Origin: Patescibacteria group bacterium
GTDB lineage: Bacteria > Patescibacteriota > Patescibacteriia > UBA9570
NCBI GenBank assembly: GCA_041660305.1
Contig: JBAZWO010000003.1
Location: 8,705 to 72,704 of the forward strand
DNA length: 64,000 bases
Reading direction: 5' to 3'
Each line of letters begins with the position of its first letter. Position 1 is the stretch's first letter. Of the stretch, positions 430 to 21,042 are shown one piece after another. The notes under the pieces are model-generated. The model worked only from the letters and a program-made list of their open reading frames with translations, searched no databases and was not told the DNA's origin. Made by a program: the position numbers and the translations under genes.

Positions 430-501
430 GGCAGGGTAGCTCAGCGGTAGAGCAGAGGCTTCATAAGTCTTTGGTCGCGGGTTCAAATCCCGCCCCTGCT
501 A
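430..501 (+). tRNA. tRNA-Met (anticodon CAT); could instead be a lysidine-modified tRNA-Ile2
   Basis: Hand-folded cloverleaf: acceptor GGCAGGG/CCCTGCT, D-arm GCTC-AGCGGTA-GAGC, anticodon loop TTCATAA, T-arm GCGGG-TTCAAAT-CCCGC. No encoded CCA. It lacks initiator hallmarks (no three G-C pairs in the anticodon stem). Confidence 0.85.
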
Positions 502-511
502 CGAGAGTTGT

Positions 512-2131
512 TTAACAACTCGAACATTTCATGGTGAGCGTGGCGCAGCTGGTTAGCGCACCGGTTTGTGGTACCGGTGGTCGCGGGTTCGAATCCCGTC
601 GCTCACCCAATAGACCCCTTATTATAACTTTCTCTCGTATCTTACTTTGAGAAGGTTGTAGTAAAATTACTTTGTTTGTATTAATTAATGATTCCAATAA
701 CGGTGTAAACTGCACCTCTGTTATGGTTTTATTGGCAGCGGTAATTCTATGAAAAATCAGACCCATATAATGCCGTTGTTGGTCTAGATTGGCCTGTTTG
801 TATAAACTAGAAAAATTACGAGAAAATTGTAATAACTTCACTAGATTATGCACGTATAACTCATGGACTTTCTCTAGTTTATTCAACTCGCTTTGCACAT
901 GAGCTATATCAGCTTTGATAGTTATAGCAACACGTTGGTAATCCTCATCTGAAATTACCCCTTTAAACAATTTATCTTCTACTACCGTACGTTTATGCTC
1001 TAAAGCAGTTAATTGATTTACCAAACCTTGTCTTTTACTACTTTCCTTATTACACATTCCCTCGTATTTTTGCTTCACTTTGGCCACTACTTTATTAATA
1101 AATTCGTCAGAAAATTGTAGCCGTTCAATAATTGCAAAGGCTTGCTTCTCTAATTCACTACACTCTACATACTTGTCTTTGCAACCAGTCGTTTTGGTAC
1201 AATGGTAATAAGATACATGCTTTTTTGGATGATGCTCTGCCGTATACTTTTTTCCACATTTACTACACCACACAAAACCACGTAATAAAAAACTATGCTT
1301 AATGTCTCTACTCCCTCGCTGTGAACGTGATGCTTTTACTGTTTGAACAATATCAAATAATTCTTTATTTATAAGTGGTGTGTGCCTACCTTGTGCAACA
1401 ATATCACCCCATTTAACCTCACCGTAATACACTTGATTGCTTAATATTTCTGCCATACGGCTATGCCCTACTCCATTACCACGAAATCCCCGTAAACCTT
1501 CTTTATACGCTAACTCTACTAACTCCTGCACTGGATAATTACCAGTAGCATATAATTCAAATATTTTCTTCACAATTGGCCCCATCATCTTATCTACTTC
1601 AATTGTTTTTGTACCGTCGCTTTTAGTGATATTTTTGTATCCTACAGGTGCAATACCAGGCCAACCACCCTCTTTGGCCTTTTGTTCAAGGCCTTTCTTA
1701 GTTTTTCGCCGAGTAATATCGAGCTGAAACTGATTAAACGTAGCTAACATCATATCTATCATTTTGCCTTCAGCACTATCATCAATTGCTGGTTGAGAAA
1801 TTGAAATAACCTGCACGCCTACTTTTCTCAATGAAGCTTTTATAGTGAGGTGTCCCTGTACATCACGAGCTAGCCGGTCAGTATCCTGCACTAATACGGC
1901 TTTTACTTCTTTATGACTTGCACAATACCCCAACATTTCTTGCAAAGCCGGCCGATTAAGCGAACTAGCACTTTTGCCAGGGTCTTCAAAAATTTTTACT
2001 ACTACAAAACCATTTCTGTCAGCAAATTCTTTGCATAATTGTTTTTGTGCGTTTAAAGAGTGCTTATCATCCTTAGCCTGCTCTTCAGTAGAAACTCGAG
2101 CATAAATAACAGCTTGTTGTGTCATAATCAT
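512..2131 (-). CDS. Large serine recombinase (integrase of the adjacent element)
   Basis: N-terminal resolvase-type motif VIYARVSTEEQ with the catalytic Ser. Central recombinase domain, Cys-rich zinc ribbon (CSKCGKKY...YYHC) and a coiled-coil tail. The last ~32 codons are the antisense of tRNA-His. Confidence 0.9.
   Translation of the reverse strand: MIMTQQAVIYARVSTEEQAKDDKHSLNAQKQLCKEFADRNGFVVVKIFEDPGKSASSLNRPALQEMLGYCASHKEVKAVLVQDTDRLARDVQGHLTIKASLRKVGVQVISISQPAIDDSAEGKMIDMMLATFNQFQLDITRRKTKKGLEQKAKEGGWPGIAPVGYKNITKSDGTKTIEVDKMMGPIVKKIFELYATGNYPVQELVELAYKEGLRGFRGNGVGHSRMAEILSNQVYYGEVKWGDIVAQGRHTPLINKELFDIVQTVKASRSQRGSRDIKHSFLLRGFVWCSKCGKKYTAEHHPKKHVSYYHCTKTTGCKDKYVECSELEKQAFAIIERLQFSDEFINKVVAKVKQKYEGMCNKESSKRQGLVNQLTALEHKRTVVEDKLFKGVISDEDYQRVAITIKADIAHVQSELNKLEKVHELYVHNLVKLLQFSRNFSSLYKQANLDQQRHYMGLIFHRITAANKTITEVQFTPLLESLINTNKVILLQPSQSKIREKVIIRGLLGERRDSNPRPPVPQTGALTSCATLTMKCSSC
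533..607 (+). tRNA. tRNA-His (anticodon GTG) with genomically encoded G-1
   Basis: Extra 5' G pairs with C73. Acceptor GTGAGCG/CGCTCAC, anticodon stem CCGGT/ACCGG with loop TTGTGGT, T-arm GCGGG-TTCGAAT-CCCGT. Confidence 0.9.
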
Positions 2132-2139
2132 TGTATTAT

Positions 2140-2283
2140 TTACCCTTTTGGTTTCTTTCGGTCTTTAGCCCAATAGGGTGATTTGCACTTCGGACAAACA
2201 CGTATATCAGCAGTACGTGGCACCCAAGTGTGATTACAACGTTTACATTGAATAGTTTGGATAATAATTGATGGATTGTTCAT
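2140..2283 (-). CDS. Small (47 aa) CxxC...CxxC zinc-ribbon protein directly upstream of the recombinase (not in the supplied ORF track)
   Basis: My translation: MNNPSIIIQTIQCKRCNHTWVPRTADIRVCPKCKSPYWAKDRKKPKG. The stop lies 8 nt before the recombinase ATG, on the same strand. Confidence 0.4.
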   Translation of the reverse strand: MNNPSIIIQTIQCKRCNHTWVPRTADIRVCPKCKSPYWAKDRKKPKG

Positions 2284-2672
2284 ATCTTATAATATAATAC
2301 TATAGTAATATAATTGCAATAGGGTGTTTTAAAAACATTTCTCTGTCTCCCTAGATTTTTGCCTATTTTTCGCTTAATTATCAGGTGATAATCTGTATTA
2401 TCAAAATTAACAATCACCATAAAAAATTTATATAAACTACATACAATATAATGACTATAGTTTTTGTTGCGTGTTTAGCTGCCCAATATTAACTGTTATA
2501 ACTTGTGTATATTTTCATACATTCAATCCTTATGTGGTTTTTGAAAACGATTGGCTGCTTTTTTTGACAATATAATACATGTAACAAAATCATGGCGTTT
2601 AAGACGCAAGTTAAGACAGATAAACTATGAATTTGCTATAATAACCAGTAGCTAAACTTCCACAACACACTC

Positions 2673-2990
2673 ATGCAAGAAACAGAACCTTACGATAGAA
2701 AACATCGTCAACGTATTACCGATAAAACCATTAAACCTATTCTCAAACGTTTACGTGGTTATCAAAATAACTTCATTTCGCTCAATGCCATCGCCTTAGT
2801 AATGAAACGCAGTTTACGTACAATTCAACATCATACCCGTCGTGGTTATCTATTTCCTCATTGTGCCTCATTTACTATGCGTCAACGATACGTGGTAGAA
2901 TTGCCTGATTTCATTCGTTATATTAAAACCTATTGGCGAATTGATACTAATGGTAACTATGTGTTTAAACGTCGTAGAGTCAAACCTTAG
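2673..2990 (+). CDS. Hypothetical basic protein, possibly an HTH/excisionase-like DNA binder
   Basis: Basic 105-aa ORF. The segment ISLNAIALVMKRSLRTIQHHTRRGYL looks like a helix-turn-helix. An extended -10 (TGCTATAAT, 2634-2642) lies ~30 nt upstream. Confidence 0.3.
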   Translation: MQETEPYDRKHRQRITDKTIKPILKRLRGYQNNFISLNAIALVMKRSLRTIQHHTRRGYLFPHCASFTMRQRYVVELPDFIRYIKTYWRIDTNGNYVFKRRRVKP

Positions 2991-3133
2991 TAATTGATAA
3001 GAGTAGATTTAGATGCTTCATAGGAGAACGACCAGAAGACACTGACACAAAAGCGAAAGCGCTATAAATACAGCATCTTAAGTGCCTAAATTAATAAGCT
3101 CTATACGAACACTGGCTATACTAGTTACTTAGT

Positions 3134-5293
3134 CTATCTCACCACACTCGTAGTCGCCTGCAAACCATCTAGTTGTTGTAAAAATTCAGTTCCTTTGGGT
3201 AAATTAATCGTAAAACAGCTACCTTTATTGACACCGGCACTAGTAAAGGTGAGTGTACCACCCGAAGCAATCACAATCTTTTTAGCATTATGAACCCCTA
3301 ACCCAGACCCGTTAGCATGGTAATCAATAATATTTTTGCCACGATAAAACTTTTCACCAATATGTTTGGCTTCTTCCACATCAAAACCTCGGCCTTGGTC
3401 TTGAATTTGAATCTGTACATGACCATTGGGTTGCTGAGTAGCGGTAATGGTTACTATTCCATCATGACCATACACAATAGCATTGTGAATTAAGGCTGAG
3501 AGCACTGTCGTGAACTTCTCAGGGTCACTGGTAATACGAGGCAAGTTCGGTTGCACAGTGACATTCAATTTTACTAGTTTAGCTTGAGCAAGCGGTTGTA
3601 GTTGTTGAATCACGGTTTGTAGTACGGTAGCCACATTCACAGGGGCAAAATTCATGTTAGCGGTATTACCTTCTAAATGCGCTGCATCAAGCATGCCTTG
3701 CACAATGCTCTGAAATTCCTTAATGCGAGGCGATACTCCTTTAATATAAGATTGGATTTCTTGCACACCTACGTCTCCCTCTTCAATCATGGCAAAGGCA
3801 CTACGGATAATACTCAAGGGGGTGTTAAATTGATGGTCCACGATATGTAAAAACTCTTCCTTCATGCGTTGTAATTCTGTAATACTCAGCTTTAGATTAT
3901 TGCGTTCACGAGTTAATTCATCGACTCGGTTACGGTATTGAGTAAATAAAATAGATTTAGTAACAGCCATCGCTAAGGCAGGGCTAATTTTGGTAAATAC
4001 AGTAATATCTTCACTGGTATAGGCAGTGTTACGTTGTTTGGAGCCTAAAATAATAAATCCTACTAAATCATTGGAGAGAATTAACGGAATACATACCCCA
4101 TCGGTGAGTGGTGCAAAAGCTTGTTGTAACTTGGTATGAATGGGTGAGGAGAGATAGGGTAACTCACTAATGACCAGAGTTTCTTTCGTTTTTACAAAAT
4201 AATCATAGACGAATTGATGCAAGGCAGATTCTGTCCAAATACCTAATTTAGCTAATGGAATATTTTTAGCTTTATAAATGTGATAGGTACGTTTAATTTG
4301 GTCATCAATGACGACAAAAGCAAAACCTTGAATATGCTGGAGTAAGAATACTCGCTCAATACTATTAATCAATAGCTCAAAATCAGTGATAGTAGAAGCA
4401 GTGTTACTTAATTGGGTTAAAGCTGTATGGAAGCGAAAGGTAGAAGAAAATAAGATATAGCCAAGGCAGGTGGTGTTAAAAATATATTCTAATAAAGCAT
4501 GTAGGACAATAGCAGTGAATATCACAATAATGCCAATAGTAACAGGAGCAATAGTGGTAAAATCATGAAAAAGGTAGGCTAGTATGGTAACAATAGCAAT
4601 AGTAAGAATGACGGGTAGAATCGTGTTAATCAGACGTTGTGCTTGAATTTGAATATCAAACAGGCGGTGTTTAATGATGGAGTAGCTCATTCCACCAATT
4701 ACAATAAGAGTGGCAAAAACACCAATATGATTATAAGCTGGTTTACCTACAATAATGGGAATAATTAAGTTAATAGTAAACGCTAAAACTATTCCAATAA
4801 TAAAGCTGATAGCAATATAAAGGATTTGTCGTTTTTGAATAGCTGTAGCATTACTATATTGTTGAATGAAATAATAAATAGCCAACAAAAATAAAAAAAT
4901 AAAATAAATAATATAGACATAAACAAAATAGCCAAATTCTAATTCAGGAAATTTTTTTACTACTAAACTAGTTAACGATATAGCCGATATTATGAAAGTA
5001 AGACTCAGTAAAATCCATTGGGATAACTTTTTGCTATTATCTTCTTTAGGAAAATATTGGAAAAATAAACCTAAGGTATAAACAATAAAAATACCAAACA
5101 GAAAAGTTAAACGTGCGAACAGAAAACTAGAATAGTTGATGAATACAATAGTACTAACACCCCAACCCGTAATAAAGAAGGACAACCAGAAAAAAATGCG
5201 ATTAGCTTTTTTATGAATATTGTAAAATAAAACAACCCCTCCCAATAGAAGATTTAGAGCTACTATAATGAACGAAACTACAGACCAAAACAT
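3134..5293 (-). CDS. Sensor histidine kinase (multi-TM N-terminus, GAF-like middle, HisKA + HATPase_c); no adjacent response regulator
   Basis: ~300 aa of TM helices. H-box EFLHIVDHQFNTPLS, N-box LIHNAIVYG, G-boxes DQGRGF and GSGLGV. Confidence 0.85.
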   Translation of the reverse strand: MFWSVVSFIIVALNLLLGGVVLFYNIHKKANRIFFWLSFFITGWGVSTIVFINYSSFLFARLTFLFGIFIVYTLGLFFQYFPKEDNSKKLSQWILLSLTFIISAISLTSLVVKKFPELEFGYFVYVYIIYFIFLFLLAIYYFIQQYSNATAIQKRQILYIAISFIIGIVLAFTINLIIPIIVGKPAYNHIGVFATLIVIGGMSYSIIKHRLFDIQIQAQRLINTILPVILTIAIVTILAYLFHDFTTIAPVTIGIIVIFTAIVLHALLEYIFNTTCLGYILFSSTFRFHTALTQLSNTASTITDFELLINSIERVFLLQHIQGFAFVVIDDQIKRTYHIYKAKNIPLAKLGIWTESALHQFVYDYFVKTKETLVISELPYLSSPIHTKLQQAFAPLTDGVCIPLILSNDLVGFIILGSKQRNTAYTSEDITVFTKISPALAMAVTKSILFTQYRNRVDELTRERNNLKLSITELQRMKEEFLHIVDHQFNTPLSIIRSAFAMIEEGDVGVQEIQSYIKGVSPRIKEFQSIVQGMLDAAHLEGNTANMNFAPVNVATVLQTVIQQLQPLAQAKLVKLNVTVQPNLPRITSDPEKFTTVLSALIHNAIVYGHDGIVTITATQQPNGHVQIQIQDQGRGFDVEEAKHIGEKFYRGKNIIDYHANGSGLGVHNAKKIVIASGGTLTFTSAGVNKGSCFTINLPKGTEFLQQLDGLQATTSVVR

Positions 5294-5394
5294 GCACTAT
5301 TAGTATATACTAATCTATGAATAATAAAAGTCGGGGAGCCATCGCCATGATGCACTCCCCGACAGTCCTCCAAAAAAAACGTGAACTCACCCGA

Positions 5395-6426
5395 CTACGG
5401 TACTTGGTAGGCCAACAGGCCTAATGTGAATCCAGCACCATAGATAAGGGAGAAAAATGAGTCACCCGAGCGCAGGCGTCCCGCCTGCATCAGGTCATGA
5501 AGTGCGATTGGCAACTCGGCTGTGACCAAGTTGCCCCTGTAGGCGTAGTCTTGGTGGCAGATTGCCAATGGAACGCCAGCAACCTCCTGGCTCTTGATGA
5601 ACAAGTCACGAGTGGGTTGGTGGATTAATGCTGCCGTAATTTGCTCGAGGGAGAATTCTGCATTGGAGCAGAATTCCTCGATGTATCTTGGCAACATTGT
5701 TTCCATCGCCTTAAAAAAAACCTCGCGGTTGTCCATGAAAAAACCAGTGCGACCAGCGGGTATCTCCGTAGGATACTGCGACCACGGCAGTGGGTAAAAA
5801 ATCGTAGGCCAGTACCGCTGCCTACTGCCGTCTTCATAGTCCATCCACGGGATTGTCCACGTCTGAACTGCCAGCCGCTTGTGACCGTCGGCAGCCCTGC
5901 GGAGTAGGATGCCACCCGCTCCATCAGCGAAGATGAAGCGGTGCATTGGATTCCCCCAAACGGACGGGTTGGTTGACAGCCGAGCACCTGCCAACACCAA
6001 CACGGTTTGATATACCCCTGTTTCTATCAGAGCGGCGGCATGTTGTATGGCCATGGTCGTGCCTGCGCACGACCCGTGCATATCGATTCCAGACCCCCGA
6101 ATACCGAGTTGTTCCTGAATAACAGCACCAACATGAGGAGCACCGATATCAGGGGGAAAGGGGCATGTCAGAAGACAGTCCACTTCACTGACATCGACGC
6201 CAGCGTTGTTGAGGGTGTTTTTTGCTGCCTCGACCATCATGTCAGCACAGGTTTCATTTTGTGCTGCCACATGCCGTTGTTTGACTCCCAATAACGCGTA
6301 GATTGCTTCAGAGGACATGGTGAAATTTGGAAAATCACCAAGTAGCTCCTCGTTACTTACTACTCGTTGTGGTAAGTACATACCAACGGTCATGTCGATT
6401 GCGAACTTAACATTACGGCTAATCAT
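5395..6426 (-). CDS. 3-oxoacyl-ACP synthase III (FabH/KAS III)-like condensing enzyme
   Basis: Thiolase-fold pattern with Cys in HGSCAGT, His in LIHQP and Asn in YRGNLVTAELP, plus a GAGFT C-terminus. The gene sits in a visibly G+C-richer patch. Confidence 0.7.
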   Translation of the reverse strand: MISRNVKFAIDMTVGMYLPQRVVSNEELLGDFPNFTMSSEAIYALLGVKQRHVAAQNETCADMMVEAAKNTLNNAGVDVSEVDCLLTCPFPPDIGAPHVGAVIQEQLGIRGSGIDMHGSCAGTTMAIQHAAALIETGVYQTVLVLAGARLSTNPSVWGNPMHRFIFADGAGGILLRRAADGHKRLAVQTWTIPWMDYEDGSRQRYWPTIFYPLPWSQYPTEIPAGRTGFFMDNREVFFKAMETMLPRYIEEFCSNAEFSLEQITAALIHQPTRDLFIKSQEVAGVPLAICHQDYAYRGNLVTAELPIALHDLMQAGRLRSGDSFFSLIYGAGFTLGLLAYQVP

Positions 6427-6686
6427 TTTAAACCTCCATACAGTTGTTGGTGGGGACGGTTTTTTGTTGAACTATAATAAAACTCTTGTAAAAGAGCGAA
6501 TTTATGTCGTACGTATTACACTATCGTAAAATGAAATAAAGTCAAAATATGAATTGCATATAATTAGCAAAGTGAACCATTATAATAAATAGGAGATAAC
6601 ATTAAATTATGCTACGATAATGAAATTAATGCTTTGAAAATCTATGATTGAGTAATGCACAAAGTATAAAATTTAACTAAATTTAT

Positions 6687-7847
6687 ATGTTACAAACTAT
6701 ATTAGAGCAAAATAAAGTAGAAGATTTAAAACAGTTAATTGAAAATGAGATACACGAAAACAGAACTATTGAATATAAACAAACACTACTCCTCGACTCA
6801 TCAGAAAATAAAAAAGAGTTTCTAAAAGACGTATCTTCATTTGCTAATACTGAAGGTGGCGATTTAATTTTTGGTTTAAAGGAAGAAAATGGTTTGCCAA
6901 CCGCTATTGTTGGTTTAGAATTGCATGATATTGATGCCGAAAAATTACGAATTGAATCTTTAATTCGCGACGGTATTGAACCACGTATTCAATCTAAAAT
7001 TCATACAATTTTTCTGGACGACCACAAAGTAGTTATAATAATACGAATAAAGAAAAGTTGGACTGCTCCACATCGTGTAATATTAGGCGGTCATGATAAA
7101 TTTTATGCTCGTAATTCAGCCGGAAAATATCCAATGAATACAAATCAACTTAGAGAAATGTTTAATGCTTCTATGACAATCTACGATAAAATTAAACAAT
7201 TTAGAGTTGAAAAACTTGCCGAAATTATTGCTGATGAAACACCTGTTTCATTAAGCGGAAAAACAAAAATAGTTTTGCATATTATTCCATTTACTGCCTT
7301 TGACCCCATAACTAAATTTACAATTGAAGAACTACAATCTATTAGTGGTGAACTACGCCCAATATATAGTTATGGTTATACTCCAAGAATTAATATCAAT
7401 GGACTGTTAAATTATAGTAGTAGTGAACAAAGTATACATACTTATCTACAACTCTATAGAAACGGTATTATCGAAGCAGTTGATAGTTCTATATTAGACC
7501 GTACAGGAAAAGAAAAATATATTCCTGATAAAGTATTTGAGAAGGAAATACTTGAAGCCTTAACTCAATATCTATCAGTAATAAAACAATTAAGTTTACA
7601 TTCTCCTTATGTCATTGCCTTGACCTTGATAAATATTAGAGGTTATAAATTTAGACGAATAAGCGGGCTAGAATATCATATTGAAAAAGATACTTTAATA
7701 TTACCAGAATCAATTATAGACCCAGATGTTATACCTAACGCCTCATCTATTCTCCGACCAATGTTTGATATTATTTGGAATGCCTGTGGACTTATAAAAT
7801 CCCCTAATTTTGACAAAGATAATAAATGGATTGGTGATAAACACTAA
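6687..7847 (+). CDS. AlbA_2 (Schlafen-type putative DNA-binding) domain protein with an uncharacterised C-terminal half
   Basis: N-terminal pattern ENRTIEYKQTL...KEFLKDVSSFANTEGGDLIFGLKE...PHRV...FYARNSAG is typical of AlbA_2 domains. Confidence 0.55.
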   Translation: MLQTILEQNKVEDLKQLIENEIHENRTIEYKQTLLLDSSENKKEFLKDVSSFANTEGGDLIFGLKEENGLPTAIVGLELHDIDAEKLRIESLIRDGIEPRIQSKIHTIFLDDHKVVIIIRIKKSWTAPHRVILGGHDKFYARNSAGKYPMNTNQLREMFNASMTIYDKIKQFRVEKLAEIIADETPVSLSGKTKIVLHIIPFTAFDPITKFTIEELQSISGELRPIYSYGYTPRININGLLNYSSSEQSIHTYLQLYRNGIIEAVDSSILDRTGKEKYIPDKVFEKEILEALTQYLSVIKQLSLHSPYVIALTLINIRGYKFRRISGLEYHIEKDTLILPESIIDPDVIPNASSILRPMFDIIWNACGLIKSPNFDKDNKWIGDKH

Positions 7848-7867
7848 CAAGTAAGTAAAATAAATTA

Positions 7868-8638
7868 TTATTTCTGTCGTTGTTTTAGTGCTTCCCACAC
7901 CAACTGATAAATCAATTTTTGCAACTGCGCAAATTCTCGGGATTCAATTACCACCGCCATTTTTTCTTTCCACGAAGCAATGAGCACTTTATCGTTATAA
8001 ATATTTACTTCTGGCGAAAATGTAGCTTCCTTATCGGGTAAAAAACTAGATTCACGTAATTCAGCTTTATCTTGTTTAGCTCGTTCCTGTGAAGACTTAT
8101 TTTGAGGCATAAGCGCTTTAATCGCTACTTTGGCTTTGGAACGTCGCGCATAATATTCTGGAAAAAAATTTGGTAATGCTTCATGCATGGTTTCCACATT
8201 CGCATAGGCTAGAATTGATTCCTGCGCAGTGAGCGTATCTTCATACGCTTCGCGCATACCTTTTTCGCCCTCATAAAACGTTACTTTAGGTTTGGTACTT
8301 TGCGGATGTAATAACGAAGCTAATTCAGGCAAAACTTGTTGCACTAGTTGTTGCTGAGTTTTTATTTTTTTATCAAATTCTTCCCGTTCACGTTCCAAAT
8401 AGTGAATTAAACGCTTCGGGTCTCCCGCATGAAAGTAAATTTTGCTTTTCTTTTTAAATTTGCTAATTAAGCCTTTTTTCATAAGGCTTTCTAGGATGTC
8501 GTAACAGCTAGTACGATTTAAATTCGTTTTTTTACTAATTTGCGTAGGTGTAGCCGAATCTAATTCTAACAGAGCTAGGTAGATACTGGTTTCTTTAGGG
8601 GAAAAGTCCAATTGTTCAAAAATGGTTGTAAATAACAT
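7868..8638 (-). CDS. TrmB-family winged-helix transcriptional regulator (paralog 1 of 4)
   Basis: N-terminal wHTH (SPKETSIYLALLELDSATPTQISKKTNLNRTSCYDILESLMKKGLI). I prefer the internal ATG at 8638 (MLFTTIFEQL...) over the track start at 8737, whose N-terminal extension is non-homologous. Confidence 0.75.
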   Translation of the reverse strand: MLFTTIFEQLDFSPKETSIYLALLELDSATPTQISKKTNLNRTSCYDILESLMKKGLISKFKKKSKIYFHAGDPKRLIHYLEREREEFDKKIKTQQQLVQQVLPELASLLHPQSTKPKVTFYEGEKGMREAYEDTLTAQESILAYANVETMHEALPNFFPEYYARRSKAKVAIKALMPQNKSSQERAKQDKAELRESSFLPDKEATFSPEVNIYNDKVLIASWKEKMAVVIESREFAQLQKLIYQLVWEALKQRQK

Positions 8639-9946: not shown

Positions 9947-9948
9947 AA

Positions 9949-13481: not shown

Positions 13482-13949
13482 TTATTCTTTACTCCAAATA
13501 ATCTTCCACATATTATCTTCGTAAGACAGCTTTATATTATGAGCACTGCTATTCTCTGAAATATTCGATACTAGTGGCATAACTGTAAATGTAATTGTGG
13601 CGTTCACTTCAGCCGATTGTTTATCCGAAGCAATATTAATATAATTATAACTTATCTCTTTTACGCCATTAACAAGATTGGCATCTTCTGTTTTGGCGTC
13701 AACATAATCTTTCTGACTAATATTACTTTTGGATGAAATATATTTATATGCTTCACCAAACTTACTACTACAAATCAAACTATAATAGTTGCTGATTGTT
13801 TCTTTAATTTGGTCTTCATTCGACGGTTGAGTCACGGTGTTTGTTTGGTTACTAGCAGGAGCGGTGGTGACAATGTTCGTAGCACAACCACTTGTCACGC
13901 TGGCCATAAGAAATAAGCTGAGAACAATGAAAATGTGTTTAGATTTCAT
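13482..13949 (-). CDS. Small lipoprotein
   Basis: Starting at the internal ATG at 13949 gives MKSKHIFIVLSLFLMASVTSGC, a signal peptide with a lipobox. That start is 5 nt after the upstream gene's stop. Confidence 0.55.
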   Translation of the reverse strand: MKSKHIFIVLSLFLMASVTSGCATNIVTTAPASNQTNTVTQPSNEDQIKETISNYYSLICSSKFGEAYKYISSKSNISQKDYVDAKTEDANLVNGVKEISYNYINIASDKQSAEVNATITFTVMPLVSNISENSSAHNIKLSYEDNMWKIIWSKE

Positions 13950-13953
13950 AATA

Positions 13954-14805
13954 TTAATATTTAATAGTAAATGTTTCATAATCAGACCAAACACTGCATG
14001 TTTGCAGATAACAGGCTTTGACATGAAATTTATAACGTTCGTTTTCTTTAAATGATGCGCGTAATAATGTTAGTTTGTTTTTTGTAACATTTTTAAATTT
14101 TTTTATTATCTTTCCTGCGTTATCAGCTATTTGAACTTTGTAATATTGACTATTCTCTACAGCATCCCAACTGAGTTTCACCTTACGTTCTGTAACCCAA
14201 GGAAAAAGATTATCTGGTGCATCTACATGATAAGCGTCACTTGCAATTAATGAAACTTCATCAATATAGCCGGATGTTGCCCACGGCCAAGTTTCTTTGG
14301 TAAAAAATTGTATCTTAACTGTTTGTCCGGCTAAGTCTCCATCAATATATGTACTAAATTGTGTCCAATCATAAGTTTTATCTTCGTTAGAACTCCAATA
14401 TTGAGAAAAGTATGTGGTATTTCCATCCAGTGATTCTACAGAAACCCCAAAAAAACCGTCATTAAGGCTATCGTCATCTTCCAAATAAAATTGATAAGCA
14501 AAATTTAATTGCAATGAATGCGTATTACTAGGCACAGTTACTGTCTGACTAAGTGTAACAAAATTATCCTCTAAAGAATCAAGCGGCGAAAGATAATAGT
14601 AATAATTACCGTTATAGGCTGTTTCATAGCTTATGGAAGACGTAGTTGAACAATAATCATTATAACCACATTCCCAACCAGCTGTGTCATTTTCAAAACC
14701 ACCATTGGTAATAATATTTGTAGTAGCTGCTCGTACAGTATGAGAACCACTAACTAACCATAATACAGTTAATACACCAACGCTTAATAATTTTATATGT
14801 TTCAT
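13954..14805 (-). CDS. Secreted protein: N-terminal jelly-roll/CBM-like region + C-terminal FN3-like domain
   Basis: Signal peptide MKHIKLLSVGVLTVLWLVSGSHTVRA. NGGFENDTAGWE motif. The C-terminal domain (KLSWDAVENSQYYKVQ...YKFHVKACYLQTCSVWSDY) is paralogous to the one in 19078-19626. Confidence 0.6.
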   Translation of the reverse strand: MKHIKLLSVGVLTVLWLVSGSHTVRAATTNIITNGGFENDTAGWECGYNDYCSTTSSISYETAYNGNYYYYLSPLDSLEDNFVTLSQTVTVPSNTHSLQLNFAYQFYLEDDDSLNDGFFGVSVESLDGNTTYFSQYWSSNEDKTYDWTQFSTYIDGDLAGQTVKIQFFTKETWPWATSGYIDEVSLIASDAYHVDAPDNLFPWVTERKVKLSWDAVENSQYYKVQIADNAGKIIKKFKNVTKNKLTLLRASFKENERYKFHVKACYLQTCSVWSDYETFTIKY

Positions 14806-14827
14806 AATAATGAAATAATGTTTAAAT

Positions 14828-14964
14828 AAAAAAGGACAACCCTACGGTTGTCTAGACCCAATCAGACAGGTTGTGCCCAATTGTTTTGTAGGATTGCCCA
14901 TTACTAAGCGCAACCCCAAACCCTTGATAAGAGGGCATAAATATTACCTGATTGAATCTAGACC
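14828..14964 (-). ncRNA. Candidate structured leader or small RNA upstream of the secreted-protein gene
   Basis: On the minus strand: a -35 TTGACG (14993-14998) and a -10 TAATAA (14971-14976). A ~16-18 bp helix pairs 14947-14964 with 14851-14870 and includes G-U pairs valid only for the minus-strand RNA. Then an intrinsic terminator (GACAACC-GTAG-GGTTGTC + U6, 14828-14853), 22 nt before the ATG at 14805. Confidence 0.3.
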
Positions 14965-15066
14965 TAGCTATTATTAACGTTTTAGAGAGTTCCGTCAATG
15001 GCAAGACGAAAATCGTTTTTTGCGATATACTAGAGCAAAATATAATGATAATGACGATGATAATTT

Positions 15067-16503
15067 ATGCTAGATTACCCCTCTATACTCAAAGAACTTA
15101 ATGCTTTACGTCAAAAGATTGAAGTAATAAATAAAAATACTCCATTTCAGGAAGTAGAGTATTTACTTGGAGTAAATTTGTTTCAATATATTTGTATTAC
15201 ACCTCCATTAAAAGAATTTTTTGAAAAGACTGCTCTGTATCGTTTACATTTTTTCGAGCGACCAGATTATTCAGAAAAACGCTCCAAAATAATAGCATTA
15301 ATACCACAGATTAATGCAGCGATTACTAATGCAGTAACACAGCATACTATTAATTTAGATGACTCTACTTATAGTGCAAAACAACACCCCTTTAGGGACC
15401 ATCCTGAAGAGAAAATATCAGCCCCTCAATTCATTACACTTATTAATAATGTTGCTAATTATCCTTTGAAGCCTATTGAGCCAATTGTAAATTATAATCT
15501 CGTACATTCTTATGAAACGAATCAAGCTTATGTTACACTGCGACATTTCAAACAATGCATTTATTTACAAGTACATAAACCATTTAAAAAAATATCTTCT
15601 TTTTTTGATAACATAGATTCACAATTAACTTTGTTATTAATGACACCAACCTCTGCCCCACACGAATTTAGTGATACCGCATATTATTCTCTTCCACCAA
15701 CCGTGATTAATTTAAAACAATTAATAGAACAGTACAAACGATTAATTGATGAACTTAATACTTTTGTTTTTACTACACCACGTGACTTGGGTGTAGAAAG
15801 TTTTGAATACCTACTTTACTTGCGTTATTTTTTGTCAGACGGACAATTACGTCCAAGCGATGAAGATGAGAAATTCATAGGTGGGAAAAACTCTTACGGT
15901 AAAGCTCGTTATCATGGATTACGTGTTGTTGAAGAACTACAAAAATATATTAAAGATTTAATCTATCAAGAAAAAATAAAATCCACGATGATTAATGTTG
16001 ATAAACGACTACCTTTACTTCAAAAGATGATTTATGCCTGCTGGGAAGACATAAGAATTGAATTTATTAACGATGATAAAATCATAATCTCTACAAGATT
16101 AGGCCAAAAAATTGAGTCTAACTACACAGCTTTGGGGTTTGTAAACCAAAACACAAAACGCCCTCACATACAGTGGGAACTTCTTAGAAATTTAGCAAAA
16201 TATGATGGTCAACTATGTTCATTTCACGATGAATTTAAAGAAAATACAAAATCTCAAAAATATGAACTGCAAAGAAAGTTGAAGAAAATTTTTGCACTGA
16301 AAGATATGCCGTTTGATGATTATAAAAAACAACAAGGATATTATACAAGATTTAGTCTAAAATATAATAAAAATTTTCAAAACGTTAACACCACAACCAT
16401 AAAATATGAAGAAGAAAAAGAAGATACTCTGGGTATTGCTGAAGCATATAATGAACAAGCTTACAGTGTTAATGTTAGAGAAAAAAATAATGTTGATGAT
16501 TGA
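15067..16503 (+). CDS. Hypothetical protein (478 aa, no recognisable domain)
   Basis: Long uninterrupted ORF followed by two hairpins. Confidence 0.45.
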   Translation: MLDYPSILKELNALRQKIEVINKNTPFQEVEYLLGVNLFQYICITPPLKEFFEKTALYRLHFFERPDYSEKRSKIIALIPQINAAITNAVTQHTINLDDSTYSAKQHPFRDHPEEKISAPQFITLINNVANYPLKPIEPIVNYNLVHSYETNQAYVTLRHFKQCIYLQVHKPFKKISSFFDNIDSQLTLLLMTPTSAPHEFSDTAYYSLPPTVINLKQLIEQYKRLIDELNTFVFTTPRDLGVESFEYLLYLRYFLSDGQLRPSDEDEKFIGGKNSYGKARYHGLRVVEELQKYIKDLIYQEKIKSTMINVDKRLPLLQKMIYACWEDIRIEFINDDKIIISTRLGQKIESNYTALGFVNQNTKRPHIQWELLRNLAKYDGQLCSFHDEFKENTKSQKYELQRKLKKIFALKDMPFDDYKKQQGYYTRFSLKYNKNFQNVNTTTIKYEEEKEDTLGIAEAYNEQAYSVNVREKNNVDD

Positions 16504-16548
16504 TTTTTGACCAGCCAAAATAGAGATTAGTTGGTCAAAATTAGAACA

Positions 16549-16577
16549 AAAAATACCTAAATTTAGGTATTTTTTTA
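16549..16577 (+). terminator. Rho-independent terminator
   Basis: An A-run, the perfect palindrome ATACCTAAATTTAGGTAT, then T7. It lies downstream of 15067-16503. Confidence 0.6.
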
Positions 16578-16718
16578 TTTTTGGGTCATTTTGACCTTAT
16601 AGGAGTAGGAACACTACTCCTATGCAAAATAAAACCGCCGAAGACACCTTAATCGAACTATTCTCAGACTTTGTACTGGAAGTGTTTTTATCTAACCAAA
16701 CTAACACACTAACTAATA

Positions 16719-16988
16719 ATGATTATGACTCAGCTACCTCGCCAAAACTTTCAAACGACTGATATGTATTTAGCAGTTTATTTGCTAGCCAAAGGTCATC
16801 CTCTACTTAATGTCACAGACGAACAACACCGCAAAGCATTTCATTTCCCTAATACCGACGAAGTGAACATTATTGCAAAAGCTTTTTTTGACGCAGCTGA
16901 TAATGACACAATCTTACTAGTTCCTGTACGCAAATTATTTATGAATCTCACGCGCTTAAAAAATAAAATTCACCAAGGAATTTATTAA
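16719..16988 (+). CDS. Small DUF5659-like protein
   Basis: TTDMYLAVYLLAKGHPLL...FHFPNTDE resembles the DUF5659 pattern as I recall it from phage and mobile-element contexts. Confidence 0.4.
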   Translation: MIMTQLPRQNFQTTDMYLAVYLLAKGHPLLNVTDEQHRKAFHFPNTDEVNIIAKAFFDAADNDTILLVPVRKLFMNLTRLKNKIHQGIY

Positions 16989-16989
16989 T

Positions 16990-17601
16990 ATGAACACACA
17001 ACAACTTCAAGCCACGCTCAGTGATATGGCCATGATTGAACAAGAACGAAAATGGAAACAATCTGTACCTAGTTGCTATGAACGTGAACACTATTTTGCA
17101 ACATTCCCAGAAGTGATTGAACTACTAAAGGATTTAATTAATATAGCTCAATCAGAACACACTACATTAGAAACCATTATTCGTCAGCAGTCAGTAGAAT
17201 TGGCAGCCGATAATTTAGATGATGTCTCGGAAGAATTTATAAAAACATGGTGGAAAGTTAAACGAGTAGCTCTCGATAGTAAAATTGCTCATTTAAAACA
17301 ACTGCTACCGATTACGCTACATAGTACTCAACCTAATTATCGTTTACCAAATGCGCTTATTGAACAAGCTAAAGCCATACCGATTCAAAATCTTATAACC
17401 GAACCAATTAAACAATATGGCGATAGATTAAAGAGCTGTTGCCCATTACATAACGAAAAAACCGCGTCATTCACTATCTATACATCTAAAAATACCTTCT
17501 ATTGCTTTGGTTGTAACAAGGGCGGTGATGTCATTGCTTTTGTACAGTTATTACACTCACTAACTTTTAGAGAAGCCGTGCAATATTTAATACCTAATTA
17601 A
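16990..17601 (+). CDS. CHC2 zinc-finger (DnaG-primase-type) protein
   Basis: C-terminal CCPLHNEKTASFTIY...FYCFGCNKGGDVIAFV is the CHC2 primase zinc-finger signature. Its start lies 1 nt after the previous stop. Confidence 0.7.
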   Translation: MNTQQLQATLSDMAMIEQERKWKQSVPSCYEREHYFATFPEVIELLKDLINIAQSEHTTLETIIRQQSVELAADNLDDVSEEFIKTWWKVKRVALDSKIAHLKQLLPITLHSTQPNYRLPNALIEQAKAIPIQNLITEPIKQYGDRLKSCCPLHNEKTASFTIYTSKNTFYCFGCNKGGDVIAFVQLLHSLTFREAVQYLIPN

Positions 17602-17624
17602 TCAAATTAATTTATTAATCTAAA

Positions 17625-18704
17625 ATGACTATGACAAAAGATTTATCAACAATTCCACATGAAATAGAAGCTATTTTCAAAAAATCAGAACTACCTAAAG
17701 AGCACTGGCCAATGATACCTATGGCCAAACTTGCAAAAAGACCATATAAACCAATTACATTTCTAGTAGAACATTTAATACCAGAACATAATGTAGTTCT
17801 GCTCACAGGTAACTCTACAGTAGGAAAAACTTGGATAGCTTTAAGTATTGGGCTTACCGTTGCCGCAGGTACTCCTCTATTTGGACAATTCAACACACAG
17901 AAAACCGGTGTTTGGTACATAGATAAAGAAAATGGTGAAAATGAAATGATACGCCGTCTTCTACGCCTGCAAGGTCCAGCAGAAATTTGGCAAAATCTTC
18001 CATTTACATTAACAAACGCAGATGATATATCATTCACTCCTGAAACTGTTGTCCCGCTTATTCAACAAGCAAAGCACAATAACATTGGCCTTATTATTTT
18101 TGACTCATTCAGCTCTTTCAATGATGATGACGAAAATAAAACCACCGAGATGCGCCAATTAATGGATATGTTTAAACTAATTAGAAATTCAGGCATTAGT
18201 GTAATTATTTTGCATCATAATCGTAAGGGAGGTACTTATGGTGGACCTTCTACAGACAAGATACGTGGAGCTTCGAGTATTTACAATTCAGTAGATGCGC
18301 ATATTGAAGTGCAGAAAATTAAAGATAAAGAAGACCATATTAAAATAACTCAAACAAAATTACGTTGCACACGAGAGTTTAAACCATTTGAAGTGAGCTT
18401 TAACGAAAATACACATTCTAATAATCGTATAGACTTACAATTTCAAGGCTTAGCTCAGCCTAAATCGGAAAAAAAGAAAAAACGAGATATAGTGACAGAG
18501 GGTATACTTGATATTCTTGCTCAAGAGCCAGTGGAGTTACCGATACAGGCATTATTGGATAAATTACAAGAGGTAGATATTGAGTGTACTAAAACAACGT
18601 TAAAAAAATATCTCCAAGCAATGACTGGTAAACAAATATCAACACGTGAAGATGGCAAAAAAAAATATTTCTCTTTATTACCAGCTGAACAAATAGAAAC
18701 GTAA
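17625..18704 (+). CDS. RecA-fold AAA_25/RepA-like ATPase (replication or primase-associated helicase-like)
   Basis: Walker A LLTGNSTVGKTW, Walker B LIIFDSF, and the sensor region ILHHNRKGG. Confidence 0.7.
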   Translation: MTMTKDLSTIPHEIEAIFKKSELPKEHWPMIPMAKLAKRPYKPITFLVEHLIPEHNVVLLTGNSTVGKTWIALSIGLTVAAGTPLFGQFNTQKTGVWYIDKENGENEMIRRLLRLQGPAEIWQNLPFTLTNADDISFTPETVVPLIQQAKHNNIGLIIFDSFSSFNDDDENKTTEMRQLMDMFKLIRNSGISVIILHHNRKGGTYGGPSTDKIRGASSIYNSVDAHIEVQKIKDKEDHIKITQTKLRCTREFKPFEVSFNENTHSNNRIDLQFQGLAQPKSEKKKKRDIVTEGILDILAQEPVELPIQALLDKLQEVDIECTKTTLKKYLQAMTGKQISTREDGKKKYFSLLPAEQIET

Positions 18705-19039
18705 GATGTAAAAAAATTCTGGTATATAGTAATTTATTTTTTAACTCAGCTAAACAAGGTAATATGTTCAATTTAAATTCTTCTTTGTCTAGCTAATAAA
18801 GTAGTGAAAATAAAAAATACTATAGAAGAATAAATTTTTTTACTCACTGTTTTGCTGTGTGATAGCGTAGGTCAGTGCGTTCATCTATTGTCTAGCGTCA
18901 AAAAAATAGACCCCCACCCCCTCTATAATTTCAGGTAACTATAAACCAACAACATGTGCAAAGGCTAGGTCAAAACTAGTCTTTTGTTGTAGTAATGTTA
19001 TAATTTGTTCAAGATACTCACCCCAATGAAAATTCATAC

Positions 19040-19070
19040 AAAAAAGTCCTGTAGTTGCAGGGCTTTTTTT
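19040..19070. terminator. Bidirectional rho-independent terminator
   Basis: A6-AGTCCTG-TAGTTG-CAGGGCT-T7, immediately 3' of the minus-strand gene that ends at 19078. Confidence 0.6.
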
Positions 19071-19077
19071 GTATTTA

Positions 19078-19626
19078 TTAATCCAAACTCTCACACGCTA
19101 CATCATCATTATCAGAATCCAAACGGTGAATATCTTTACCTACTTCTGCCATACACGTATTGTACACACTTTGAGCCTCAGCTTGAGTAGAAAAATCTGC
19201 ACAGTTATAGGTATCAGAAGAGCAAATAATTGAGTTATTATTTTCAACTGGTACTGGTTGTTCTTCCTCTTCTTCAGTTACGACAATCGGGACTTCGAAT
19301 TGTTTATATTTAGACCATTTACCGCAATTACTCTCTGAGCAAGCTCGTACTTTAAATTTATACGTGCTACCTTGTTCTACTAAAGCGCTAATGTTTAATG
19401 ATGTAGTGGTTGTTTTTTTCCACTTTTTTACCAACTCTACGTCTTGAGTAATCAAACGAACTGTGTAGTAATCAGCATTAGTTACTACATCCCAAGTTAA
19501 CGTTAATGTTTCTCCAGAACCTTCTAATTGCAAGTTAGTTGGTTTGGCTAGTTTGTTAACCGCATAAACACTAGAAGCTATGCTTAATGCAGTTAATACA
19601 GCAAACAATAATAATAGTTTTTTCAT
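19078..19626 (-). CDS. Secreted FN3-like + Excalibur calcium-binding domain protein
   Basis: Signal peptide MKKLLLLFAVLTALSIASSVYA. FN3-like TLTWDVVTNADYYTV...YKFKVRACSESNCGKWSKY. C-terminal Excalibur motif CADF...RLDSDNDDVACE. Confidence 0.7.
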   Translation of the reverse strand: MKKLLLLFAVLTALSIASSVYAVNKLAKPTNLQLEGSGETLTLTWDVVTNADYYTVRLITQDVELVKKWKKTTTTSLNISALVEQGSTYKFKVRACSESNCGKWSKYKQFEVPIVVTEEEEEQPVPVENNNSIICSSDTYNCADFSTQAEAQSVYNTCMAEVGKDIHRLDSDNDDVACESLD

Positions 19627-19679
19627 ATCCTCCCCTTTTTACTTATTAAATATAAATTTAAAAAATTTCTCTAAATACT

Positions 19680-20924
19680 TTAATAAAACTTTTGAGCTTT
19701 AGATACAGCATAACTATACAATGGAATTAATAATAACAATACCATTCCAGCTATTAACCAGGTTAAACTAATAGAATATTGTTTAGCAATCCAACCAAAC
19801 ACAAGTAACCCTATGCCGGCTCCTAATTTACTCATCAGTGAATCAAATGATAACAATGTGGCTCGTTCGCTGCTTGGAATATATTGATTTAAGTAACTTT
19901 TTTGTAGCGGTGCCATTAAACCACGACCTATTTCATAAATAAGAAATCCCGTCACTAACGTAGACACTACCGATGTAGAAGCAATGGTAATAATTGGTAT
20001 AGCTGAGAGCAGTGTAGCAATCACGAATAACCAACGATAAGATATAGTAAGTTTAGTAAAACGTTTGGCCAGATAAGCTCCTAGCATCAAACTTATTGAA
20101 ACACCAGCCCAAACATAACCTAATAACCAAACTTGTTGATTGGTTAATTGTGCTATTCGCGGCGCCCAATACATATTGAGTGGTTGGAAAGCTAAATTAG
20201 CAATAACAGTCGCCAATAGTAACCAAATAACTACCGGGTGCTTAATACCATATTTAATACTTTGCTGTAATACACTACGCATGCGCTTAATACCATTTAC
20301 TAAATGAAACTGAGAATGTTGAACTTGTATCTTTGCTTCAATCATTCCCCAACGAGCTAACGCAAATGTCAGTAGCGCTAATAACGCTCCTATACCAAAT
20401 GGCAAACCAAGTTGAATATTAGCTAATTGAGCTCCAATAAATCCGCCGAGCAATAACGCTAAGCCACTAGCCATACCGCCATGAGAAAATACCAAATCAG
20501 TTTTATTACCATAACCTTGGTGATGTAATTTATCTACCATCCAAGCATCGAGCGCGCCAGATAAACAAGCCATCGAAAAGGCTGTCCAGAGTTCGGCGAA
20601 CATAAACCAGCCAATGTTTGAAGAGAAAAAATAAATACCAAAGCCAATTGGTAAACACATAAAACTTAGTAGCACTGCTTTTTTTCTACCAGCATAATCC
20701 GCATAAGCACCAGTTGGAATTTCAAAGATTACACTACTTAACATAAATACTGTATTTACTAAGTTTACTTGAAATAAATCTAAACCGTGGTGTAAAAGAT
20801 AAAGTGAATAAACCGTAGCCACTAAACCTATTAAAAAATCAGATGAAAACACCAAAACATAATACATGGCTCGTGTATCTTTAGCTCGTATACTTCGATA
20901 AAACTCTAGGCTACGTTTAAACAT
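19680..20924 (-). CDS. MFS transporter
   Basis: About 12 predicted TM helices in 414 aa, with the MFS-like loop GAYADYAGRKKA after TM2. Confidence 0.8.
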   Translation of the reverse strand: MFKRSLEFYRSIRAKDTRAMYYVLVFSSDFLIGLVATVYSLYLLHHGLDLFQVNLVNTVFMLSSVIFEIPTGAYADYAGRKKAVLLSFMCLPIGFGIYFFSSNIGWFMFAELWTAFSMACLSGALDAWMVDKLHHQGYGNKTDLVFSHGGMASGLALLLGGFIGAQLANIQLGLPFGIGALLALLTFALARWGMIEAKIQVQHSQFHLVNGIKRMRSVLQQSIKYGIKHPVVIWLLLATVIANLAFQPLNMYWAPRIAQLTNQQVWLLGYVWAGVSISLMLGAYLAKRFTKLTISYRWLFVIATLLSAIPIITIASTSVVSTLVTGFLIYEIGRGLMAPLQKSYLNQYIPSSERATLLSFDSLMSKLGAGIGLLVFGWIAKQYSISLTWLIAGMVLLLLIPLYSYAVSKAQKFY

Positions 20925-21021
20925 TCACCTAATATAACATCAACTAGTTGCATTATACAATGCTGGCGGCAAAGAAATAATTAACTGTACGTGCTTCCAA
21001 ATATCCGGAAAATGAGGTATC

Positions 21022-21042
21022 AATCCCCGTCGCTCACCCCAA
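21022..21042 (+). repeat. Imperfect direct repeat of the tRNA-His 3' end (putative attR)
   Basis: AATCCCCGTCGCTCACCCCAA here versus AATCCCGTCGCTCACCCAA at 592-610. The shared exact core is CCCGTCGCTCACCC (14 nt), in the same orientation. Confidence 0.55.

Follow-up and report, generated by a model that had tools for sequence, protein, structure and literature searches.

A probable tandem array of insertions at a tRNA-His gene of a Patescibacteria group bacterium, its newest member bearing a large serine recombinase

Introduction

Genomic islands of the Islander type, which depend on tyrosine integrases, integrate at the 3′ end of a tRNA gene, regenerate the tRNA, leave a displaced 3′ fragment of it at their far end and carry the integrase gene beside the tRNA; after serial integration, arrays of such fragments accumulate. 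The same traits are seen in a 64,000-nt stretch of DNA from a Patescibacteria group bacterium (the window; GenBank assembly GCA_041660305.1, contig JBAZWO010000003.1, positions 8,705 to 72,704 of the forward strand). The genome is a MAG of an uncultured bacterium, and for two proteins of the window NCBI has counterparts at 100% identity under the name Patescibacteria. Here, foreign DNA integrated at the 3′ end of a tRNA-His gene is supported by our analysis, and the tRNA-proximal end of that DNA holds the gene for a large serine recombinase, which we call Int. For serine integrases, Mageeney et al. (2020; PMC7192596) described the use of t(m)RNA genes as unreported and in need of experimental proof, with 14 candidates among 297. 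The targets analysed by Durrant et al. (2022; PMC10083194) are protein-coding, and the word tRNA is absent from the main text of that study. For the tycheposons of Prochlorococcus, the portions of Hackl et al. (bioRxiv 10.1101/2020.12.28.424599) covered here report a large serine recombinase in 27 of 937 elements. A search of open-access full text combining serine recombinase, tRNA and Patescibacteria returned nothing relevant, although an earlier description elsewhere is possible.

We propose that the locus is probably a tandem array, a stack of three insertion relics, of which the Int-bearing element E3 is the newest and two older relics, E2 and E1, lie downstream. The tRNA-His gene would thus be a repeatedly used integration site with E3 as its current occupant. 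Integration itself is read from the anatomy of the locus; integrase activity is predicted, and present-day mobility is unproven.

Results

Displaced copies of the tRNA-His 3′ end

The following features mark the left end of the locus.

430-502: tRNA-Met (ARAGORN, Rfam)
534-608, + strand (534-610 including the 3′ end): intact tRNA-His(GTG) (ARAGORN; Rfam, 65.4 bits)
512-2131, - strand: large serine recombinase Int, 539 residues (Pfam Resolvase, Recombinase and Zn_ribbon_recom)

A preliminary description of this DNA had reported a repeat of the tRNA-His 3′ end, and we recovered it: AATCCCGTCGCTCACCCAA at 592-610 recurs in identical orientation as AATCCCCGTCGCTCACCCCAA at 21022-21042, the sole difference being one additional C in each of two C-runs. 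The 14-nt exact core, CCCGTCGCTCACCC, is found in the 64 kb only at 595-608 and 21026-21039, also when two mismatches are allowed, while shuffled sequences gave an expectation of 0.01 chance matches; the concern that it might be a common genomic word did not hold within the window. The tRNA-His gene ends in ...CTCACCCAA, with its CCA only partly encoded. Two further, shorter copies of the tRNA end are present (CTCACCCCAA at 19017-19026 and ACCCCAAG at 21759-21766), and all three displaced fragments are in direct orientation, each with a homologous terminator hairpin about 15 nt after it. As in an Islander-type island, one end has an intact tRNA with int next to it, and the opposite end a displaced 3′ fragment in direct orientation. 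The tRNA-His 3′ region is, on this arrangement, read as the attL side of the innermost element, E3. The earlier choice of 430 as the start of the element has to be given up, as it takes in tRNA-Met, which belongs to no element.

That a 3′ fragment of the tRNA lies displaced in direct orientation is confirmed, and chance does not account for it. We give almost no credence to the view that the repeats match by chance or represent debris of tRNA pseudogenes with no link to site-specific recombination. Short C-rich words do recur, and the 3′-terminal 25-mer of tRNA-His is a widespread word in metagenomes (at least 120 contigs). The 14-mer, however, is unique to its two sites, all three copies are direct 3′ fragments followed by homologous terminators, and the site around the outermost copy matches the attR of another genome over exactly the att site (see below).

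Int is an apparently intact serine integrase

The placement of a large serine recombinase at the tRNA-proximal end was confirmed by Pfam (PF00239, 1.8e-35; PF07508, 1.7e-11; PF13408, 1.8e-07), and Int also matches a PHROG integrase family (3.9e-88), the catalytic domain of TP901-1 integrase (1.2e-11) and the C-terminal domains of A118 integrase (1e-6). Arg12, Ser14, Asp85, Arg86 and Arg89, the catalytic residues, are invariant in a 31-sequence alignment (A1). With its 539-codon open reading frame (ORF) whole and all catalytic residues kept, Int looks catalytically intact. The serine family is the sole recombinase here, since no Phage_integrase (tyrosine) domain was found by Pfam in the 21 ORFs scanned between 512 and 22561. 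The Int ORF has no stop before the tRNA and reads across the entire antisense tRNA-His (C-terminal part GERRDSNPRPPVPQTGALTS; KVIIRGLLGERRDSNPRPPVPQTGALTS), such that its last 33 codons consist of antisense tRNA-His plus spacer. Within this coding tail lies the P′ half-site described below, where GTT ATA ATA encodes V-I-I.

A recombinase clade that targets tRNA genes

A protein search returned 690 homologues of Int at E <= 1e-20, mostly from Patescibacteria. The clade comprises hundreds of proteins, mainly from that group, with others from Gastranaerophilales, Elusimicrobiota, Omnitrophota and Bacteroidota. An antisense T-arm peptide forms the end of 35 among the best 120 of the 690 homologues, always in the frame ...(D/E)(S/L)NP, and a further 33 among these 120 stop at W/R-G-x, matching the CCA/acceptor end, which brings the two groups together to at least 68 of the 120. 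We then compared 80 genomic loci of relatives with Int identities of 25-44%. The int ORF overlaps an intact convergent tRNA gene with its 3′ end in 58 of the 80, and a tRNA lies within 150 nt in 2 more. The closest relatives are all at tRNA-His and the next group at tRNA-Asn, while more distant ones use tRNA genes for Glu, Arg, Leu, Ala, Lys, Met, Gly, Gln and Pro. Among 80 more distant large serine recombinases from viral contigs, by comparison, tRNA overlap was seen in 3, no tRNA lay nearby in 39, and the contig edge was too close to judge in 36. The difference between these two sets argues that the tRNA association is a property of the clade, and we consider tRNA targeting, as judged from gene positions, to be a trait of the whole clade. 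The preliminary description had called the combination of a serine recombinase with a tRNA repeat less usual; this holds for the literature but understates the case for a clade in which most loci show it.

Conserved att geometry in relatives

Seventeen homologues without a tRNA-derived tail end in VII(R/S)-x9-(I/L)IT(L)L-(D/E)-x-x-Y-x-x-L-(K/R)-E-K-L-x-x-I-K, and in the three elements of this type with DNA at hand, VII and IIT are encoded by the two arms of an inverted repeat in the DNA. An intact repeat of the form GTTATAAT-N31-ATTATAAC lies inside the int 3′ end at loci L289 and L290, which carry the same element, and at L291, none of them at a tRNA. Its arms extend to 12/12 nt in L289 and 9/9 nt in L291, a degenerate right arm occurs at the same spacing in L006 (counted by hand), and the spacer is centred on a short sequence resembling a tRNA 3′ end. 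We read this inverted repeat as an attP lying in the int reading frame. At nine tRNA-His attL sites of relatives, a P′ 8-mer (A[A/T]TATAAC or a variant) starts 16 nt after tRNA position 71 (hand count); the tRNA-Asn relatives L012, L020 and L024 have a similar 8-mer at comparable offsets, the same distance having been verified by hand count in L012. Hence, the attP geometry of the close relatives appears to be fixed as GTTATAAT-N31-ATTATAAC, centred on tRNA position 71. Within 10 kb, exact direct repeats of the tRNA end that reach 10 nt or more occur at the distant loci L018, L038, L040, L041 and L062 only and nowhere in the close tRNA-His clade, which the very short repeat of that clade explains.

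Directly upstream of int and in the same orientation, L289/L290 and L291 (about 8100-11617) carry a second large serine recombinase gene and an ORF of about 95 residues. Their surroundings include CBASS-like genes, KAP NTPase and HEPN genes, or a TraG-like coupling protein, and they may be paired-recombinase elements.

The geometry points to a probable right end of E3 at 19020

The proposed att sites of E3 and the neighbouring terminator are as follows.

587-628, + strand: attL of E3, with T-loop GTTCGAAT (587-594), N10, centre A605 (tRNA position 71), N15 and P′ ATTATAAC (621-628)
18997-19039, + strand: attR3, the attR of E3, with P GTTATAAT (18997-19004), N15, centre A19020, CCCCAA (19021-19026) and ATTCATAC (19032-19039)
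19040-19069, + strand: intrinsic terminator, presumably once 3′ of tRNA-His before E3 arrived, with homologues at 21053-21088 and 21778-21809

Scans for mirror symmetry, in which 16 nt of P were scored against the reverse complement of P′, gave too much noise in A+T-rich DNA and failed even on L018; a pattern of 8-mer and spacing derived from the family was used in its place. For the pattern 'GTTATAAT, N14-16, ACCCAA', the top match in 63 kb was 18997-19026, with 0+1 mismatches, and GTTATAAT has only 4 occurrences on the + strand of the window. Joining A19020 to C606 yields a 47-bp site with an exact 31-nt spacer, as in L289, L290 and L291 and, by hand count, L006. The Int reconstructed in this attP form has 535 residues ending in ...KVIIRGLLGEYLEQIITLLQQKTSFDLAFAHVVGL, and its VIIR-x9-IITLL spacing is that of the 17 homologues without a tRNA-derived tail; a hidden Markov model of the tails of these homologues places this continuation 4th among about 128,000 positions. 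Both 8-nt half-sites of E3 are perfect. Together, the fit of the att geometry and the reconstructed Int tail indicate that E3 most likely spans about 606-19020 (18.4 kb), with a direct repeat of its own of only 7-10 nt, and they predict the junction sequences GTTATAATTTGTTCAAGATACTCACCCAATAGACCCCTTATTATAAC for attP and GTTCGAATCCCGTCGCTCACCCCAATGAAAATTCATAC for attB. An excised form with a shorter Int ending in ...RGLLG* was also considered and rejected as an artefact of a 4-C core, since the 3-C junction given by a native CCA end keeps the frame open.

The two ends given earlier for a single element of about 20 kb (592-610 and 21022-21042) do not agree with this result, as the conserved geometry is found only at 18997-19026, 2 kb inside the right border then proposed. 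The repeat at 21022 belongs to the following site.

21017-21042, + strand: attR2, holding the repeat first noted, with GTATCAAT (21017-21024), N11, A21036 and CCCCAA

We nevertheless weighed a single element of about 20.4 kb (609-21021), moved by this recombinase, in which the 14/21-nt repeat would be attL/attR and the copy at 19017 an internal relic; in a variant, two accreted elements would form a composite that now moves together. The predicted outer junction would then be GGTATCAATCCCCGTCGCTCACCCAATAGACCCC. Of the copies of the tRNA end, that at 21022 is the longest and the best preserved, distant relatives (L018, L040 and L041) have 13-17-nt repeats that also start from the T-loop AAT/AT, and tandem islands can fuse. 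The left arm of attR2, however, has no GTTATAAT-like 8-mer at N15, where TGAGGTAT stands instead, and an attP rebuilt with attR2 gives an Int tail that lacks the VIIR-x9-IIT pattern. Furthermore, the half-site of attR2 (GTATCAAT, at N11) has its symmetrical partner in ATTCATAC at 19032-19039, which marks the left end of E2, rather than at the int end. We therefore regard a single element, in either form, as unlikely.

Several observations weigh against a stack with E3 ending at 19020. The superior preservation of the repeat at 21022 has been mentioned, the direct repeat assigned to E3 is short, and P′ is not mirrored by the inner 15 nt of its P arm; in the noisy generic scans for mirror symmetry, 19020 did not stand out. 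Beyond IITLL, the reconstructed tail poorly resembles the family consensus. The relatives with an intact attP have the second recombinase gene upstream, so that they may not correspond exactly in function. In composition, the region differs only weakly from the host: tetranucleotide usage at 1-17 kb is slightly less host-like (mean r 0.909 versus 0.932) and becomes host-like again from about 17 kb. No empty site in relatives and no circular junction turned up in assembled contigs, exact-protein look-ups or a metagenome scan. Finally, a better half-site copy exists, solitary and unexplained, as listed here.

12299-12320, + strand: solitary inverted copy of the P′ arm/Int tail coding stretch, 15/16 nt, between the Mrr and HNH genes

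The + strand frame of this copy reads DIVIIRGNFW, and no tRNA-like core lies beside it. It could be the relic of a further element, an Int-binding site or a chance match (rough p about 0.01). A decayed inverted attL was rejected as its origin: identity is near random past the first 19 nt (by eye), and tblastn found no int remnant there.

The inferred attB and a proposed mechanism

Combining the tRNA side of attL with the right side of attR3 yields an inferred attB of 38 bp, GTTCGAAT-N10-A-CCCCAATGAAA-ATTCATAC, which would represent the native tRNA-His end with an encoded CCA followed by the terminator. Its left half-site, the T-loop GTTCGAAT, is 6/8 identical to GTTATAAT and lies at N10 from the centre in attB versus N15 in attP, and is thus 5 bp closer. 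The structural model of serine integrases, based on the A118/LI integrase, likewise places the outer motif 5 bp closer to the centre in attB than in attP. At the level of sequence, the two sites have the form known for serine integrases, with an attP of 47 bp, an attB of 38 bp and inverted half-sites. Serine integrases exchange strands with a 2-bp stagger at a central dinucleotide that is not palindromic, and a separate factor sets their directionality; here, the centre maps to A605 +/- 1 nt (CA or AC).

The mechanism we propose draws on this anatomy and on the family comparison. Int would recombine the attP of about 47 bp on a circular element (GTTATAAT-N15-centre-N15-ATTATAAC) with an attB of about 38 bp made up of the T-loop GTTCGAAT, N10, tRNA position 71, about 11 nt and a weak right half-site. 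Crossover would take place in the last base pairs of the acceptor stem, so that the element would resupply only tRNA positions 72-76, and it would leave CTCACCC(C)AA as a short direct repeat. Because the putative attP lies inside the int 3′ end, the integrated int ORF crosses attL and ends in antisense tRNA.

Present-day mobility

Exact-protein look-ups with Int, the 196-residue protein of E1, the MFS transporter of E2 and the AAA_25 protein of E3, as well as inspection of Int cluster members, returned the same integrated arrangement only. The metagenome scan for the predicted native tRNA-His end gave only unrelated organisms, this end being a widespread word, and a synteny comparison through the upstream YeiH gene found homologues in unrelated contexts and no syntenic relatives.

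A fixed island that is no longer mobile, in which the att relics are historical and the recombinase is decaying or domesticated, is therefore a possibility that we take seriously while holding it improbable. It agrees with a record of integrated forms only, in three assemblies from at least two samples, with a regenerated tRNA that lacks a fully encoded CCA, and with the poor conservation of the tail encoded by the P arm. Among the element genes no directionality factor was identified, the one candidate, by position only, being the following ORF, for which this role is speculative.

2673-2990, + strand: 105-residue basic protein beside int, a candidate DNA-binding or directionality factor, with no Pfam or PHROG match

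On the other side, the 539-codon ORF is whole with every catalytic residue present, both 8-nt half-sites are perfect, and assembled contigs and exact-protein look-ups could hardly detect rare excision.

Probable older relics downstream of E3

The array beyond E3 contains these features.

19021-21035: E2, a 2-kb segment without an integrase (self-BLAST, repeat families D1-D3)
19078-19626, - strand: fn3/Excalibur secreted protein of E2 (Pfam)
19680-20924, - strand: MFS transporter of E2 (Pfam)
21037-21758: E1, a 0.7-kb remnant with one ORF of 196 residues (21136-21726, + strand) and its own promoter-like site
21736-21766, + strand: attR1, with GTTCTAAC, N15, A21759 and CCCCAAG

The repeat first reported as the far end of the integrase-bearing element would instead close E2. 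Both ends of E2 are 78-82% identical to the chromosomal stretch 21759-22668 (in self-BLAST, 19020-19197 versus 21759-21937 at 79% and 20924-20979 versus 22609-22662 at 82%), so that 19.0-21.0 kb resembles the stretch behind the third copy of the tRNA end. The tRNA identity of attR2 spans the T-loop AAT to the 3′ end, and GTATCAAT, unique in the window, mirrors ATTCATAC at 19032-19039 in 7/8 positions, both lying equally far from the centre. An 8-mer of this type, ATTGATAC, stands next to the tRNA of L018, the tRNA-Asn relative with a 17-nt repeat from the T-loop AAT. Given this likeness and the different half-site of attR2, the recombinase that inserted E2 was probably not Int but a relative of it; E2 may alternatively have arisen by duplication.

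attR1 is identical at 25 of 29 positions to the attR of the 10.7-kb L003 element, over exactly these 29 nt and with unrelated flanks on both sides. L003 is a Patescibacteria single-cell genome whose element lies at tRNA-His and whose Int is 39% identical. This match suggests that attR1 is the attR of an earlier element of the L003 type of which only 0.7 kb (E1) is left; it would validate the att geometry independently and point to serial use of the site. Since each newcomer inserts at the intact tRNA, E1 would have come first, then E2 and last E3.

Two cassettes of the form 'terminator, genes, promoter' share their ends and differ in their inner genes (MFS versus metallo-beta-lactamase). An Excalibur-domain gene paralogous to the intact 19078-19626 survives at 21814-21960 as 47 codons of its 3′ end, which abut a gene of the metallo-beta-lactamase fold. 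A second TrmB regulator (22666-23493), 40% identical to that of E3, lies beside an AbiEii/AbiEi toxin-antitoxin pair at 24290-25846, just past the att array.

Gene content of E3

The remaining genes of E3, in order, are these.

3134-5293: histidine kinase without an adjacent response regulator (Pfam)
5395-6426: KAS III (Pfam)
6687-7847: Schlafen/AlbA_2 protein (Pfam)
7868-8737: TrmB regulator (Pfam)
9344-10707: two membrane proteins (Pfam)
10718-12298: Mrr_cat type IV methyl-directed nuclease (Pfam; PADLOC mREase_IV, 1.3e-69)
12393-13406: HNH_5 nuclease (Pfam)
13482-14805: two secreted or lipoproteins (translations)
15067-16503: 478-residue protein of no known family (Pfam, translation)
16719-18704, + strand: putative replication module of DUF5659, a CHC2 zinc-ribbon protein (like a primase N-domain) and an AAA_25 RecA-family ATPase (like a primase-helicase C-domain) (Pfam)

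The genes named earlier between the repeats (CHC2/RecA-like module, nucleases, histidine kinase, KAS III, secreted proteins and MFS transporter) are all present by Pfam, and the KAS III gene is G+C-rich, as had been stated, with a local peak of 0.46 versus about 0.36. This peak suggests a separate, more recent acquisition nested in E3. The cargo is nearly unshared among related elements, one AAA_25 gene in L018 being the exception; for the AAA_25 protein of E3 there are no more than 3 homologues, all distant. The 215-nt gap upstream of the DUF5659/CHC2/AAA_25 module holds a perfect 28-nt palindrome, AAAAAATACCTAAATTTAGGTATTTTTT (16548-16575), perhaps a terminator, or else a candidate for an origin or an operator.

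Int and the module itself match PHROG families (integrase and primase/helicase, respectively), and such genes would suit a prophage or an integrative and conjugative element. We consider either identity very unlikely. Pfam and PHROGs revealed no capsid, terminase or tail genes in 609-19020, and no relaxase, coupling protein or type IV secretion genes were found there by Pfam, with remote folds not examined. Moreover, IMG/VR has no member of the close clade, and its best viral relative reaches at most 35% identity. The most fitting description of E3 is a cryptic integrative element that has a replication module of its own along with defence or cargo genes.

Other tRNA scars and repeats in the window

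Farther along the window, which also holds genes for ValRS, SMC and GyrA, a tRNA-Glu(TTC) gene is flanked by pieces of itself (48207-48290, 48551-48623 and 48725-48742). Its first 35 nt recur 344 nt upstream, broken in the anticodon loop by a 30-nt perfect G+C-rich palindrome that is followed by 9 more tRNA nucleotides, and its last 18 nt (AATTCCCCCACGGGCTAC, from the T-loop AAT) recur 101 nt downstream. The arrangement resembles a scar that one more round of integration and deletion has left at a tRNA. It is at 47-54 kb that tetranucleotide usage departs most from that of the host. G+C-rich palindromic repeats, REP- or MITE-like, stand out in this A+T-rich genome at 37825-37875 and 39924-39974, and also at 48242-48271 and 48660-48720; TTCCCCCTTCTCCTCAGAGGAGAAGGGGGTTAGGGGGATGAGGT is present as two palindromic copies, 96% identical, flanking an HD-domain gene.

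Discussion

Targeting of tRNA genes is usually held to be a hallmark of tyrosine integrases, and here it characterizes a whole clade of serine recombinases with a geometry that appears predictable to the base pair. Island finders that require long tRNA repeats or tyrosine integrases would miss such elements or delimit them wrongly, as illustrated by the 2-kb error in the first placement of this one. The 47-bp attP and 38-bp attB provide testable substrates for enzymes native to a radiation that is hard to manipulate genetically. Serine integrases work without host factors and are therefore candidate tools for integration at a site found in almost every bacterium.

More tentatively, and with the odds in our judgement somewhat against it, the T-loop half-site and its fixed distance to the acceptor end may be exploited as one half of attB, with the exchange of the Int tail acting as an integration-dependent switch of integrase form. 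If so, the T-loop half-site would explain why close relatives occupy different tRNA genes (His and Asn; farther out Glu, Arg, Leu and Ala). Integration would replace a conserved tail of about 30 residues (IITLL-D-x-x-Y-M-x-x-L-K-E-K-L-x-x-I-K in the relatives with an intact attP) by antisense-tRNA residues, and the integrated form of the enzyme would differ from the free form, a switch possibly of directionality or stability. Whether the swap of the C-terminal tail on integration has a regulatory role is a question that these observations raise.

Precedents for an attP inside a gene of the element come from tyrosine-integrase systems: SSV1-type integrases, where int is split on integration, and mycobacteriophages with integration-dependent immunity, where the repressor or Int loses a degradation tag. 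As in these systems, integration of E3 would change the 3′ end of an element gene by a crossover within the ORF, whereas here a serine integrase would trade its last approximately 30 residues for antisense-tRNA codons. Int shares its Resolvase, Recombinase and zinc-ribbon architecture with the large serine integrases of phages (A118/LI, TP901-1, Bxb1 and phiC31), together with an attP of about 47 bp, a shorter attB, inverted half-sites and the 5-bp offset of the A118 model. In contrast to those enzymes, to which it is only distantly similar, its target is a tRNA gene with the T-loop as a half-site, its attP lies within its own coding tail, and the elements that carry it are not phages. Tycheposons, as far as the portions of the preprint covered here describe them, resemble E3 in lying next to tRNA genes, in their partial tRNA copies, in combining an integrase with a primase/helicase module and cargo, and in lacking a transfer apparatus. 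The resemblance is a functional one only. They belong to another phylum and are overwhelmingly tyrosine-recombinase elements, and for their serine recombinases those portions give no att geometry. With respect to Islander-type islands, the differences are the large serine recombinase and a crossover at about tRNA position 71, which accounts for the E3 repeat of only 7-10 nt. The kind of element, an island at a tRNA gene, is known; the variant, with a serine integrase, a short repeat and an attP inside int, is little described.

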